From Bacteroidota bacterium (GTDB lineage Bacteria > Bacteroidota > Bacteroidia > UKL13-3), in contig CANHVU010000011.1 of NCBI GenBank assembly GCA_947464275.1, forward strand, positions 23,429 to 87,428: DNA of 64,000 nucleotides, written 5' to 3'. Each line of letters opens with the position of its first letter. Within the stretch, counting starts at the first letter, position 1. This document shows positions 1,585-39,930 of this stretch, in pieces. Below the pieces are notes generated by a model that saw only the letters and a list, made by a program, of their open reading frames with translations, was not told the origin of the DNA and did no database searches. Both the position numbers and the translations under genes were made by a program.

Positions 1585-1662
1585 AACAATTTGAAATTTT
1601 TGATTTTTGATTTAAGATTTTTTTGATTGATTGCGTAGGTAATAATTACTCTATTAACTGAC

Positions 1663-1680
1663 TCCCGATAGCTATCGGGA
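1663..1680. repeat. Perfect 18-nt palindrome tcccgatagctatcggga in the 109-nt groES-groEL spacer
   Basis: Read directly; it is self-complementary around an agct centre. It has the same architecture as gtccgaaagctttcggac at 39709-39726 and 39880-39897. It is preceded by period-7 words tgatttt/tgattta/agatttt at 1601-1621. Confidence 0.85.
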
Positions 1681-1693
1681 CACCAACTAATTG

Positions 1694-1969
1694 CTATACT
1701 ATAGCAAAAATATCGCTTTCGCGCATAATTAAATACTCTTTACCATCAACGGTAACTTCGGTTCCAGCATATTTACCGTACAATACGCTATCGCCAGGCT
1801 TAACAGTCATAGGCTCATCTTTTTTTCCTGCTCCTGCTGCCACAACAATACCTCTTTGCGGTTTTTCTTTAGCTGTGTCTGGAATAATAATTCCACCAAT
1901 TGTTTTTTCTTCTGCCGGTGCTGGCTCCACCAACACTCTGTCGGCTAATGGTTTTAATGATACTGACAT
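1694..1969 (-). CDS. groES: Co-chaperonin GroES (Cpn10)
   Basis: The 91-aa [43 protein letters not shown]... is a typical Cpn10 sequence and lies directly upstream of groEL on the same strand. Confidence 0.97.
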
Positions 1970-2253
1970 ATTATTTGTTTTAAATTTTTAGATTGTATAT
2001 TTATAAATCTTTTATTCGATTTATAAACCCACATCAGCACTAATTGTGCCATTGCCGCTAAATTGAAAATTTGGCATAAAAACCGCAACAGCTGTCTTTT
2101 TAATAAATTAAATACACTGTAAAAATGTCAAAATGTGCATTAACCCAAAAAATAGTTAAAAATTTAATAGTATTGTGCAACCGCTACCATTGGTTTATTT
2201 GACTAATGTGTAACTTAACCAAAGTTATTTTTTAAAAACTACCAAACTAAAGC

Positions 2254-2817
2254 ATGAATCTTTCTATTGAAGATATGATTTCAGGTTGCAAAGAAGGCGA
2301 CAGAAAAGCTCAAAAGGCTTTTTATGATCACTTTGCATCAAAAATGCTGGGAGTTTGCATGCGCTATGCCAAAGACAGGGCCGAAGCCGAAGATATGTTG
2401 CAAGAAAGTTTTATTAAATTATTTCAAAGCATGCATACTTACCGTGGTGAAGGCAATTTTGAAGGTTGGGTTAGGCGAGTGGTGGTTTTTAACGCCATAA
2501 ATTTATACAAACATAGGCTTCGTCATTTTAAAGAAGATTTGGATGTTAAGGATTATGACGCAAAATACGATGACGATGTAGTTTCAAAAATTTCGGTTAA
2601 GGAAATTTTAGCTTTTGTGCAGCAAATGCCCGATGGCTATAGGTTAATTTTTAACTTATATGCCATTGAAGGATTTACGCACAAAGAAATAGGCGAACAG
2701 CTTGGAATTGCTATTGGAACCAGTAAATCGCAGTACGCTCGTGCACGCGATTGGATGAAAAAAGCACTAACCAAACATTACAATATTTTAAATGAACCAT
2801 TTGAACAACCAAGATAA
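2254..2817 (+). CDS. ECF-type RNA polymerase sigma-70 family factor
   Basis: 187 aa. It has a region 2-like segment (AEDMLQESFIKLFQSMHTYRGEGNFEGWVRRVV) and a region 4 HTH (YAIEGFTHKEIGEQLGIAIGTSKSQYARARDWMKK). Confidence 0.9.
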   Translation: MNLSIEDMISGCKEGDRKAQKAFYDHFASKMLGVCMRYAKDRAEAEDMLQESFIKLFQSMHTYRGEGNFEGWVRRVVVFNAINLYKHRLRHFKEDLDVKDYDAKYDDDVVSKISVKEILAFVQQMPDGYRLIFNLYAIEGFTHKEIGEQLGIAIGTSKSQYARARDWMKKALTKHYNILNEPFEQPR

Positions 2818-4420
2818 ATTTGAAAAACAGCTAAAAGAGCAGTTCGACAGTTTTGAGGCCAAACCAAATGAGGCCTTATGGGACAATATTGCCCAAAATT
2901 TACCGGCCGATAATTTTGAAAAATCGATTGCTGCTAAATTAAATACTTTGCAGGTTGAACCTAGCGAAGGCATTTGGTTAGCTATAGAAAAACATTTACC
3001 TCAAATATCCAAATACAGCAAAAAACTGGTTTATATATGGACTTTTGCAGTATTAACTGTGGGTGTTATTGCAGGAATTTTTATCAATAAATTCACTACA
3101 GAAATTAGTCAAAACAATACATTAACTCATCCAAAAGCTTTTGTTTGGTTGGATTCGGCTACCATTGGCAATGAAAACTTAATTAGCTCAAATAATTTAT
3201 TGGCAAATACCAATAATAGCAAACAACAGTTAGCTTTAAATGTTAAAAAAGTTGAAAATAAGGCTGTTGCCCCTGACTTGCAAAATACTAATAATCATGT
3301 AAATACAAAAAGTTTAACTTCAACCAAACCTACTACACAAAATTATAGCAATCAAACAAATGCAATCAATAGTACAAAACCTATTATTGCCACTACAGTT
3401 GTTTCCGCTACAGCAATTAATGCTTCAGGTTTAAACAATATGGTAAATAATCCAATTGCTAAAAATGATGGTTTAAATAACAATGCTTTGAGTTCAAATA
3501 ATGGTGGAAGTAATAACAACAATAATACTGTCATTGCTAAAAACGATGAACCAATAAACCCTGTAATTGCTGAACAAAATAAGCCAAAAACAGTAAAAGC
3601 AATTGATAAAACAGAAATCAAAGCTGAAGCACCTTCCAAAGTTGATAGTTCTATCAATATACCCAATGTAAAAACTACCAATGCACAACAAGCATCGGAA
3701 AACGATTACATGGGACCATCCTTAAAACGCGAAAAATTAACCATAATAGCCTATGCGGGAATGGGTTATAGTTTTATGCGCTATGCTGAAGGAACCAATA
3801 AAACTAACAGTGCTGCCAACATTAATTTGCGAGAAAAAACCGAAAGTACCGAATCTGAAATTTCTGGAGGATTTTTGATTGGTTACGATATTACTAAACG
3901 TATTACTTTAAGTTCAGGAATTATCATGGCTAACTTTAAACAAATCATGAATTTTGATAGAGATATAGCCAAACAGCAAATGGGTAATTACGAGGAAAAC
4001 CTTATCTATTATAATGATACCATTCTTGCTGGAAGTAACAATTCAAAATCTTTAAAGTATTCATTTACCGAAATTCCTATTTATGTTACTTATAAAATTT
4101 TAGAAACTCCTAAATTTGAGTTAGCTGCACAAACTGGCTTGGGAATTGGCTTTTTAACAGGAATAAACACTTATGTGATTGCTCAAAACAATGTTGGCGT
4201 TTATGAAATCAGCAATAAAAACGATTATCCTGCTTTTAAAAACACTTTGTTTTTTACTTTCCAGCCTCAATTTACTTATAATTTAAGTGCCCCTGGAGTT
4301 TCCATTGGTTTTATGCCAATAATAAAAACCAGTTTAACCAATATTGTATCTGACGAAAAATGGTTGAAACAATATCCATATAACATGAGTTTCAACTTGT
4401 TTTTAAGAAAAAGATTTTAG
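2792..4420 (+). CDS. Putative anti-sigma-like membrane protein with a C-terminal outer-membrane beta-barrel-like domain
   Basis: 542 aa. Its start overlaps the sigma gene by 26 nt. It has a short N-terminal soluble part and one TM helix (LVYIWTFAVLTVGVIAGIFI). A ~230-aa Asn/Thr/Ser-rich low-complexity linker follows. The C-terminal ~220 aa has an alternating strand pattern ending FNLFLRKRF, an OMP-like terminal Phe. Confidence 0.6.
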   Translation: MNHLNNQDKFEKQLKEQFDSFEAKPNEALWDNIAQNLPADNFEKSIAAKLNTLQVEPSEGIWLAIEKHLPQISKYSKKLVYIWTFAVLTVGVIAGIFINKFTTEISQNNTLTHPKAFVWLDSATIGNENLISSNNLLANTNNSKQQLALNVKKVENKAVAPDLQNTNNHVNTKSLTSTKPTTQNYSNQTNAINSTKPIIATTVVSATAINASGLNNMVNNPIAKNDGLNNNALSSNNGGSNNNNNTVIAKNDEPINPVIAEQNKPKTVKAIDKTEIKAEAPSKVDSSINIPNVKTTNAQQASENDYMGPSLKREKLTIIAYAGMGYSFMRYAEGTNKTNSAANINLREKTESTESEISGGFLIGYDITKRITLSSGIIMANFKQIMNFDRDIAKQQMGNYEENLIYYNDTILAGSNNSKSLKYSFTEIPIYVTYKILETPKFELAAQTGLGIGFLTGINTYVIAQNNVGVYEISNKNDYPAFKNTLFFTFQPQFTYNLSAPGVSIGFMPIIKTSLTNIVSDEKWLKQYPYNMSFNLFLRKRF

Positions 4421-38827: not shown

Positions 38828-39067
38828 GCTGCAATTTAATTATTATTTTAATGATTGAACAAGGATATTTGTTACAAAATTCCTATTTAAAAGCCAATAT
38901 TAAAGTTGATTAAGGTAATCATTTTAGTAGAATCTGTTATAAATTGTTTTTCACCCTCCTATTGTATTACTGTTTTAATTATTGAGATATTAAGCAAATG
39001 AACTACCATATTAATTATTGATTTTAAAACTTTCTGGTTAGTTAATTTCATTCAAACAAATTTGCTT

Positions 39068-39619
39068 TTAATCAATAATAATGGGGTATTTTAACAATAA
39101 ACCCGACAAACCTGAGGAAGCAAAACGGGCATTTTTCACCTTGTTTACTTCCAAGTCAATTCCATAATTATAAGCTTTTCTAAAATCTACTTTTTCTAAA
39201 ATACTTTGTTGGAATACAGCCAATGTTAAATCGCATTCCACAAACCTAGATTCGGTTAAATCGCTCTCGTTAAAATCAACTTCTTTTATACTGCAATTTT
39301 TAAAAATGGTTTTCTTTATTTTCTTTTGATAAAACGAGGCAAAGTCTAAAATACATGTATCGAAACTAAATGATAATAAAAAGTCTTTGCACCTGCTAAA
39401 ATCAATGCCTAACAATTTACAATTGATAAACTGTGCATTGTTAAATGCAGTATTATTAACCTTAACCAAACTCATATCGCAGGTTTTAAAAGTACAATCA
39501 ATGAAGGATATGTTCGATAAATCGGCTTTGGAGAAATTACAATCAGCAAACAGCACCGAATCGTATTCCATATTTGATAATTTGCCATTCGAAAAATCTT
39601 TTCCTTGTATTGTTTCCAT
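39068..39619 (-). CDS. Pentapeptide-repeat protein
   Basis: 183 aa of consecutive A(D/N)LxX-type pentapeptides, for example FADCNFSKADLSNISFIDCTFKTCDMSLVKV. Confidence 0.85.
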   Translation of the reverse strand: METIQGKDFSNGKLSNMEYDSVLFADCNFSKADLSNISFIDCTFKTCDMSLVKVNNTAFNNAQFINCKLLGIDFSRCKDFLLSFSFDTCILDFASFYQKKIKKTIFKNCSIKEVDFNESDLTESRFVECDLTLAVFQQSILEKVDFRKAYNYGIDLEVNKVKNARFASSGLSGLLLKYPIIID

Positions 39620-39626
39620 GTTTTTT

Positions 39627-39660
39627 TAGTTCTTAGTTCTTAGTTCTCAGTACTTAGTTT
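39627..39660. repeat. Period-7 word repeat tagttct x3/cagtact/tagttta
   Basis: Read directly. It uses the same word family as 14881-14970; agtacttagtt is shared. Confidence 0.9.
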
Positions 39661-39665
39661 ATTAT

Positions 39666-39930
39666 TTCATCCACAGGCTAAAGCCATGTGGCAATTAATT
39701 TATGCTTCGTCCGAAAGCTTTCGGACTCCGCTCAGCAACCATAATTCAGCATTCATAATCTAACATTCATAATTCATAATTTCATCCATAGGCTAAAGCC
39801 ATGTGGCAATTCATTCAGCATTCATAATTCATAATTCATAATTCATAATTCATAATTCATAATTCATAATTCATGCTTCGTCCGAAAGCTTTCGGACTCC
39901 GCTCAGCAACCATAATTCAGCATTCATAAT
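39666..39930. repeat. Composite duplicated intergenic element: hairpin unit X twice and a 58-nt unit Y twice
   Basis: Unit X is ttcatcca[c/t]aggctaaagccatgtggcaatt at 39666-39696 and 39781-39811. Unit Y is atgcttcgtccgaaagctttcggactccgctcagcaaccataattcagcattcataat at 39702-39759 and 39873-39930, with 58 of 58 nt identical. Each Y contains the perfect 18-nt palindrome gtccgaaagctttcggac. Y2 overlaps the last codons of the ABC ATPase gene. Confidence 0.92.
39823..39871. repeat. Heptanucleotide microsatellite (cataatt) x7
   Basis: Seven perfect tandem units were read directly. A shorter run of the same word lies at 39765-39783. Confidence 0.95.

Follow-up and report, generated by a model that had tools for sequence, protein, structure and literature searches.

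Tandem repeats with a unit of seven nucleotides have been noticed in bacterial genomes since 1990. Here we analyzed such repeats in a 64,000-nt stretch of DNA from a Bacteroidota bacterium (GCA_947464275.1, contig CANHVU010000011.1, positions 23,429-87,428 of the forward strand; in the following the window, whose own numbering is used throughout), in which degenerate heptamer arrays occupy several intergenic spacers. The G+C content is 29-36% across the window and about 32% in the genome, the nearest atpD relatives (82-87% identity) are uncultured freshwater Bacteroidota, and DNA of the window is detected in many lake metagenomes. We are highly confident that the arrays are heptanucleotide long simple-sequence repeats (LSSRs), a class which is already known, and the new aspect is the presence of locus-specific, AT-rich words within a recurring architecture. 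With regard to their origin and role we lean slightly towards a combined explanation, in which the arrays arise locally by slippage and are retained as transcribed spacer RNA that would tune the expression of the downstream gene.

According to Mrázek et al. (2007), as cited in two later studies (PMC4679880, PMC4692102), heptanucleotides are the most frequent type of long simple-sequence repeat in the majority of prokaryotic genomes, and it was proposed that the stretch of about 7 nt held by the polymerase favours slippage. As far as they are presented in the same two studies, LSSRs and the cyanobacterial STRR share with the arrays described here the tandem 7-nt units in intergenic DNA, the over-representation in comparison to other unit lengths and slippage as the proposed cause, but STRR (Mazel 1990, cited there) consist of few fixed words in many copies, whereas the words in the window differ by locus. 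The repeats of Xanthomonas (GGGAATC) and Nostoc (GGGGAYT) are G-rich heptamers that were read as G-quadruplex-forming (Rehm et al. 2015, PMC4692102). The Xanthomonas repeat is the closest match: it is located mostly between co-directional open reading frames (ORFs) and is rare in coding DNA and between divergent ORFs, it occurs at most 50 bp after stop codons in sense and at most 50 bp before ORFs in antisense orientation, which results in the same G-rich then C-rich order as here, it is mostly transcribed, groES is among the associated genes, and its length and sequence vary between sister species (PMC4692102). In contrast to the window with its own AT-rich word at each locus, Xanthomonas employs a single G-rich word genome-wide. 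Direct repeats of TAACTGA are positioned a few nucleotides upstream of start codons in Beggiatoaceae, cyanobacteria and five Bacteroidetes, and other heptamer repeats are present in spacers of Gramella, Aequorivita and Elizabethkingia (MacGregor 2015, PMC4679880). The first-pass annotation of the window had not recognized its repeats as a named class, which does not hold in view of these descriptions from cyanobacteria (STRR), Xanthomonas, Nostoc, Beggiatoaceae and a few Bacteroidetes (PMC4679880, PMC4692102). In the LSSR and STRR surveys as reported in these papers we found no description of hairpins reaching from stop to start codon or of recurrence at operon junctions, both of which are seen in the window. 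The STRR words CCCCAGT, TTGGTCA and CAACAGT, as well as TAACTGA and GGGAATC, do not occur in tandem in the window.

The closest functional analogy is provided by the REP/BIME (REPIN) elements of enterobacteria and pseudomonads, which stabilize the upstream mRNA and modulate the expression of the downstream gene. Like these elements, part of the arrays form imperfect palindromes in transcribed intra-operon spacers after stop codons. However, REPs belong to one conserved family of about 35 nt that is spread by the RAYT transposase, whereas the arrays share no sequence, their hairpin arms are locus-specific tandem arrays, and only a short GC palindrome (CCGAWAGCTWTCGG) recurs. A comparison of the whole window with Rfam 15 yielded no match at the gathering threshold. 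Heptamer-array hairpins in operon spacers of Bacteroidota were not described in the literature that we searched, and such a description may exist elsewhere.

Genes in the window were approximated by long ORFs, with Pfam support for groES, groEL, hmgA (homogentisate dioxygenase), hppD (hydroxyphenylpyruvate dioxygenase), atpD, atpC, purA and the ABC ATPase gene. Repeats were identified with Tandem Repeats Finder (TRF) and our own lag-p self-match scan, in which a region was counted as positive if any 21-nt stretch had at least 15 matches at the given lag, and 300 dinucleotide-preserving shuffles served as null model. At lag 7, seven of the 38 intergenic regions of at least 40 nt were positive (mean 0.88 and maximum 4 in the shuffles), and each of the other lags in the range 3-13 gave 0-2 positive regions. 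The excess of period 7 over neighbouring periods and over shuffled sequence, on which the first-pass annotation had made its observation depend, is thus present. Across lags 2-15, strong self-matching segments were found only at 7, at its double 14 and once at 9, and none of the 54 coding regions in the window reached a stricter cut-off of 17 matches out of 21 at any period. TRF reported period-7 arrays with 3.9-7.9 copies at 1596-1622, 10604-10632, 14884-14921, 14934-14966, 19741-19779, 39626-39659, 39740-39781 and 39820-39874. Direct reading of the sequence bears out all seven loci that had been listed before, at the coordinates given there; the stretch 39740-39781 and a weaker one at 43005-43032 (GCTGCTA-type, in a divergent spacer, without assigned strand, 15 of 21 lag-7 matches) were not on that list. 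The idea of one phenomenon with a constant period and free words is supported by these results. The words indeed differ at most loci, but TTAGTTC/GAACTAA is common to the arrays at 14884-14921 and 39626-39659.

A phylum sample was compiled from 80 atpD loci of other Bacteroidota species and the window, which corresponds to 1.42 Mb with 780 intergenic regions (177 kb). It contained 84 intergenic arrays of period 7, compared with 7.9 expected from shuffles, 47 of period 8 (7.2 expected), 20 of period 9 (7.6 expected) and 16 of period 6 (6.0 expected), and periods 4, 5 and 10-12 gave 8-12 arrays each, with 5.0-7.3 expected each. The coding DNA of the 81 loci contained arrays of period 6, 9 and 12 instead. 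Hence, repeats exceeding chance and a mainly non-coding location, both of which characterize LSSRs, are found in the window (7/38 vs 0.88; no coding region) as well as in the sample (84 vs 7.9). Exact tandem duplicates were about threefold more frequent than expected for 7-mers (62 vs 19.8) and 8-mers (19 vs 5.5) and at expectation for 4-mers and 5-mers, and arrays of three or more exact 7-mer copies were found six times with none expected. In a control of 250 kb from E. coli K-12 with 32 kb of intergenic DNA, an identical pipeline identified no period-7 array at all, and therefore the excess is a property of the lineage, neither a general bacterial feature nor an artefact of the statistic.

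The position of the arrays follows the direction of the neighbouring genes. If the atpD-atpC spacer is left out, co-directional spacers of the phylum sample contain 0.50 period-7 arrays per kb, about fourfold more than divergent (0.11) and convergent (0.13) ones, and among spacers of 40-200 nt an array was present in 25 of 281 co-directional but only 2 of 134 other spacers (Fisher p = 0.003). Of the arrays that start at most 10 nt past the upstream stop codon, 25 of 28 contain more G than C in sense orientation, and of those that end at most 15 nt before the downstream start codon, 21 of 22 contain less G than C. For 43 of the 76 period-7 arrays in co-directional spacers, the spacer also contains an inverted partner array (12 or more of 14 positions matching); Xanthomonas has 70-75 convergent pairs per genome that are able to form stem-loops (PMC4692102). 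Placement between aligned ORFs, G-rich words after the stop codon and convergent pairs are therefore features in common with the Xanthomonas/Nostoc type. Phase-variation (contingency) repeats switch a gene on or off when their copy number changes, via the reading frame or the spacing of a promoter; within the window the arrays sit between stop and start codon, outside of reading frames and not between promoter boxes. Spacer-class density and polarity are in line with an enrichment of arrays in spacers adjoining stop and start codons. The claim of the first-pass annotation that they mostly follow directly after stop codons is true for several loci, but the arrays at 1596-1622 and 39626-39659 are located 12 and 7 nt before start codons.

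A defined test case in cultivable species is the junction between atpD and atpC. Among 72 measurable loci the length of this spacer is bimodal, either 0-44 nt or about 50-146 nt with a mode of 81 nt. The strongest lag in the 40 long spacers is 7 in 28 cases and 8 in eight cases, and all of these 36 are predicted to form one long imperfect stem. In the 36 long spacers with a predicted fold of -15 kcal/mol or below, 16-46 bp are paired, the stem begins 0-5 nt past the stop codon in 28 cases, and between its end and the ATG there is an A-rich tail, with a median distance of about 7 nt. The words depend on the lineage, with TGAGAYN and TTGATAC in Pedobacter, the 8-mer GCACATNT in Mucilaginibacter, TTTCGGA in a Saprospiraceae genome, ACTCAAT in Salinimicrobium and TTAGTTC in the window. 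Here, the entire spacer comprises 94 nt on the minus strand (14879-14972; atpC ORF 14645-14878) and consists, in sense orientation, of a 5' arm with five AGTTNNN units (14934-14966), a loop and a 3' arm with five ACTAANN units (14884-14921). The predicted hairpin begins 5 nt past the stop codon of atpD and extends up to the last base ahead of the ATG of atpC (14878-14876); the predicted folding energy of the sense RNA is -30.9 kcal/mol for this spacer (z = -6.1 against shuffles). The junction has evolved such an architecture repeatedly. The hairpin is also present in the cultured and partly tractable genera Pedobacter, Mucilaginibacter, Winogradskyella and Salinimicrobium, and sister lineages with a short plain spacer can serve as comparison.

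A similar picture emerges for groES-groEL, for which 78 spacers were measured on metagenome contigs: 12 of the 47 with a length of at least 40 nt showed period 7, four showed period 8 and three another period, and the closest groES relative of the window (93% GroES identity) has quite different words in this spacer. In Sphingobacteriaceae, hairpin spacers are also found within ilvB-ilvN, ilvN-methyltransferase, ilvC-leuC, ilvE-ilvD and yicC-gmk. Heptamer-array hairpins fill the spacers L061:20345-20424, L039:9868-9946, L049:18723-18812, L071:17160-17239, L077:18008-18154 and L079:13980-14066, which belong to ilvB-ilvN, ilvN-methyltransferase, ilvC-leuC and yicC-gmk of Pedobacter, Mucilaginibacter and a related metagenome-assembled genome. 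Some of the hairpins in the branched-chain amino-acid operon and yicC-gmk have a purine-rich 5' arm (AAAGNNN) and a pyrimidine-rich 3' arm (CTTTNNN).

The first-pass annotation had also proposed that the spacers at several loci can fold into hairpins. This applies to the spacers of atpD-atpC, hppD and purA, but the arrays at groEL, hmgA and the pentapeptide-repeat gene are direct repeats only and essentially unstructured. The hairpin between hppD and a LOG-family gene (12726-12768, plus strand) is built of palindromic heptamers (ACCATGG / TCTATAG); its stem begins 1 nt past the stop codon of hppD and stops 8 nt short of the ATG at 12777, and the spacer folds at -24.0 kcal/mol (z = -7.5), which was not equalled by any shuffle. 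The array in the 3' untranslated region of purA (19741-19782, plus strand) starts 3 nt past the stop codon and is composed of CAATTGN units with a core that is itself palindromic (TRF period 7, 5.6 copies); it is self-folding with -20.6 kcal/mol (z = -2.9). In contrast to these, the array upstream of groEL (1596-1622, minus strand, 3.9 copies by TRF) consists of degenerate direct repeats of the AAATCAA type on the sense strand, contains no G (A18 C3 G0 T6), ends 12 nt 5' of the start codon (1584-1582) and is predicted to be unpaired in the fold of the spacer. The same holds true for the leader of the pentapeptide-repeat gene (39626-39659, minus strand), with 4.9 copies of a direct GAACTAA unit in sense orientation, which ends 7 nt before the ATG (39619), is predicted to be essentially unpaired and has the same word as the atpC-proximal arm at 14884-14921. 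Both leaders resemble TAACTGA repeats in their position a few nucleotides before the start codon, and TAACTGA likewise has few Shine-Dalgarno sites nearby; however, TAACTGA is a single word that is thought to be horizontally spread and is nearly always direct, with one inverted set in 170 (PMC4679880), which is otherwise here. The array after hmgA (10604-10632, plus strand, 4.1 copies by TRF) consists of direct, G/U-rich repeats of the GTTGAAT type (A6 C0 G9 T14), begins 8 nt past the stop codon and ends 23 nt before an ATG at 10656; its fold is weak (-4.9 kcal/mol, z = -1.6).

Transcription across an array was found at the atpD-atpC junction. In the freshwater metatranscriptome X49, the stretch from atpC via the spacer into atpD (14702-15328) is covered without gaps by contigs of similar depth, and this spacer is thus present in RNA, with the restriction that the contigs come from one metatranscriptome and possibly from contaminating DNA. 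The runs X25, X26, X28 and X32 gave matches only to atpD of related organisms that did not reach the spacer. Transcript ends are not readable from the X49 contigs. A role of the arrays as intrinsic terminators, one of the functions suggested earlier, is not borne out: the hairpins are followed by an A-rich tail and the ATG instead of a U-run, and the RNA contigs cross the atpD-atpC spacer. Even at purA the sole canonical terminator found, with stem and T-run, lies separately at 19827-19856 (plus strand, terminator scan), downstream of the array. The Bacteroidetes -7 motif TAnnTTTG is absent from the array spacers of the window, which carries little weight since the window as a whole shows no enrichment of the motif (126 vs 127), and a sigma-70 scan of the window was at chance level (40 sites vs 44 in shuffles).

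A comparison with related populations revealed that array spacers are subject to fast changes. In the spacer at 39.6-39.9 kb, contigs differ by -35 nt (five units), by an additional ATTCATA, by -102 nt and by -139 nt, and the array at 39626-39659 is 8 nt shorter in a contig of X9; these differences, which may reflect the variation in unit number expected of LSSRs, were taken not from reads but from assembled contigs, in which miscounts are possible. The hppD-LOG hairpin has equal length in X8, and in X6 it is replaced by another GC hairpin and CAACTGTCAACTAACAACCATCAACTAAAA, a G-poor CAACTNN heptamer array that abuts the same start codon. X6 also differs in the 3' spacer of purA, where 19737-19803 is replaced by GCTGCTGGCAGCTAGC and the palindrome TCCCGAAAGCTTTCGGGA. 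Because spacers in relatives have lost, replaced or resized their arrays, we conclude that sequences are renewed within a lasting architecture. The atpD-atpC spacer of Pedobacter, in contrast, is conserved apart from point changes.

These results support a common generating process, as had been considered in the first-pass annotation, and some generator of this kind is needed, which fits three results: 7- and 8-mer duplicates are about threefold in excess, contigs differ in unit number, and close relatives carry other words or none. No result speaks for the templated heptamer addition that had been proposed along with it. We are highly confident that the arrays originate locally, and it seems feasible that a short local seed is amplified by slipped-strand or template-switch errors during replication, with slippage as the probable generator. 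Local amplification would explain why each locus has its own word, and the similarity of inverted arms might be maintained by copying across the fold-back. The arrays would turn over fast and persist mainly in transcribed spacers between co-directional genes. Our confidence in a function is moderate. In Bacteroidetes, mRNA structure tunes initiation, which depends on a start region free of structure and not on a Shine-Dalgarno sequence (PMC6847099). As ribosomes of Bacteroidota ignore Shine-Dalgarno sequences and choose starts by accessibility, the spacers would set the amount of the downstream protein. We assume two forms. In the hairpin form, a G/U-rich array after the stop codon would pair with a mirror-image A/C-rich array to an imperfect hairpin of 20-35 bp, whose base brings the upstream stop codon and the downstream start codon together; the ribosome finishing the upstream gene would unzip the base of the stem and open the start region, which amounts to translational coupling, and the hairpin possibly also protects the upstream mRNA. 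In the open-leader form, a G-poor direct array would provide an unstructured leader right before the start codon and leave initiation free. Such a coupling or leader function would resemble that of REP elements in enterobacterial operons.

Several points weigh against the combination of slippage and retention. Slippage alone leaves the preference for units of 7-8 nt over 4-6 nt unexplained, as shorter units would be expected. Period-8 arrays have no co-directional bias in the phylum sample, and the two periods may therefore have separate explanations. Furthermore, the hairpin is not essential, as about 30 of the 72 lineages have arrayless atpD-atpC spacers of less than 45 nt and X11, where 48 nt are missing, precisely lacks the hppD-LOG hairpin. 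In the 36 atpD-atpC hairpins the sense RNA is not more stable than the antisense RNA (15 vs 21, p = 0.11), and their single mismatches show no G:U excess (19 A:C/C:A vs 11 G:U/U:G), so that neither comparison gave a sign of selection on the sense-strand RNA. The presence in RNA covers one locus only, with contigs that possibly stem from contaminating DNA, strain variation was read from assembled contigs, where the copy number of perfect repeats that exceed the assembly word may be wrong, and gene calls outside the window are ORF-based approximations. It is possible, though in our opinion rather doubtful, that the arrays are a neutral by-product, i.e. debris of a replication or repair process favouring duplications of 7-8 nt that accumulates where it is least harmful, with hairpins arising via template switching. 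The fast turnover with whole elements present or absent between close relatives, the many lineages with short arrayless atpD-atpC spacers, the lack of a G:U wobble preference on the sense strand of the stems and the one perfect and hence presumably recent array are in line with this, and the literature itself attributes the period to polymerase slippage (PMC4679880, PMC4692102). A neutral origin alone does not easily account for the fourfold density in co-directional spacers in comparison to other intergenic DNA, which holds after length matching, for the strong polarity (G-rich after stops in 25/28, G-poor before starts in 21/22) and for stems that abut stop and start codons. The recurrence of arrays with unrelated words at atpD-atpC and groES-groEL across families and the atpD-atpC spacer sequence kept by Pedobacter species with point changes only also argue against it.

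It seems improbable that the period reflects a repeat-reading protein that contacts about 7 nt of single-stranded RNA or DNA per module and depends on spacing or composition, with S1, cold-shock-domain and RRM proteins as candidates. A constant period with variable words would fit such a reader, and a cold-shock domain covers roughly 6-7 nt. Moreover, the G-free A/C/U arrays right before start codons are reminiscent of TAACTGA, whose proposed binders are S1, Csp and CsrA (PMC4679880). However, pairing with a partner instead of a single-stranded state is predicted for more than half of the arrays, and period-8 arrays hold the same atpD-atpC position in some lineages. The words share composition only, without a consensus, which speaks against a sequence-specific form of the common reader considered in the first-pass annotation. 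Each locus has its own AT-rich word, and therefore neither such a reader nor G-quadruplexes can be the general explanation; a G-quadruplex motif (G3+N1-7)x4 was not detected on either strand of the window. We consider it very unlikely that the arrays act at the DNA level as cruciforms or slipped structures or represent REP- or MITE-like modules that insert into spacers. In favour of this, the two strands give stems of equal quality, relatives differ by the presence, absence or exchange of whole modules, the palindrome CCGAWAGCTWTCGG recurs three times in the window and also in the purA spacer of a relative, and a few 13-mers are found again at unrelated loci of other genomes. On the other hand, the words differ by locus, so that there is no dispersed family, and placement and polarity follow gene direction. 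Exact 12-14-mers of the window words occur in few other loci, by our estimate a number close to chance for 7-mer arrays, and a mobile or dispersed family was rejected as main explanation. Terminal inverted repeats, target duplications or a transposase did not turn up in the window, although no search was aimed at transposases.

A more far-reaching version of the combined explanation is tentative and, taken as a whole, unlikely in our view. It would regard heptamer-array hairpins as a phylum-wide, self-renewing class of intra-operon spacer elements that ties the downstream start to upstream termination. As parts of the same unlikely whole, slippage in one or the other arm would adjust the strength of the stem in 7-nt steps, and the period and the G-rich-first polarity would be selected and not accidents of mutation, e.g. 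in order that the C-rich arm is never exposed unpaired during transcription. If true, it would explain the heptamers of Xanthomonas and cyanobacteria without G-quadruplexes. Irrespective of this, the architecture is separated from the word, as period, hairpin, co-directional placement and G-rich-then-C-rich polarity are kept while the sequence is free, and this separation speaks against explaining heptamer repeats in general by G-quadruplexes or sequence-specific binders. Should the hairpins tune translation, a phylum that does not use Shine-Dalgarno sequences would have in them a main device for adjusting the ratios of proteins encoded in one operon, and if they do nothing, they are a striking case of mutation-driven genome architecture.

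The arrays of the window are accompanied by other repeats. A GC-rich hairpin at 1652-1691 (minus strand; fold of 1585-1693) is positioned between the groES stop codon and the heptamer array, and its core is the perfect palindrome TCCCGATAGCTATCGGGA at 1663-1680. The motif CCGAWAGCTWTCGG has four occurrences in the window with 0.23 expected. Perfect GC-rich palindromes of one type (TCCCGATAGCTATCGGGA, TCCGAAAGCTTTCGGA) adjoin heptamer arrays at 1663-1680, 39709-39726 and 39880-39897, and the relative X6 has TCCCGAAAGCTTTCGGGA in its purA 3' spacer. These palindromes may represent a small dispersed hairpin family. The spacer after the ABC ATPase gene (39661-39931, minus strand) is a composite with a tandem duplication of about 171 bp, as revealed by the sequence, a TRF score of 110 and the alignment with L081 and L082. 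Each copy combines two GC hairpins (ccacaggctaaagccatgtgg, tccgaaagctttcgga) with heptamers, and the TTATGAA arrays (sense) are degenerate at 39740-39781 and amount to 7.9 perfect copies at 39820-39874 (ATTCATA on the forward strand). The Logan contig L082 contains a single copy of the duplication, which might be due to assembly collapse and was not counted as firm strain variation. Words of the (TTCATAA)n type at 39796-39888 reached a depth of about 35,000x and 8,500x in two lake metagenomes compared with 5-8x in the flanks, and other organisms in those lakes must therefore carry this satellite in very large amounts.

Beyond the heptamers, a period-8-like motif AACTTTAACACTT (reverse complement AAGTGTTAAAGTT) is present at 8925-8981, 9378-9437 and 53954-54039; it is G-poor on the sense strand and located upstream of hmgA and other genes. 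Some arrays in other Bacteroidota spell the telomere-like words TTTAGGG and GGGGTTA (L007:15997-16040, L083:2800-2830), probably by coincidence. In the region 10596-11630, the two small genes between hmgA and hppD, 10656-11084 (DUF6452-like) and 11106-11543, are missing in three related populations, which join 10595 to 11630 via 99 other letters and thus show an indel polymorphism in the tyrosine-degradation cluster. In all four DNA runs a contig joint connects 4451 to 5808 and skips the gene at 4606-5751 (regions 4421-4605 and 5752-5889). This joint is flanked by words of the GCCACAGATT type (4427, 5828), and the same word is found in spacers of several other Bacteroidota loci.

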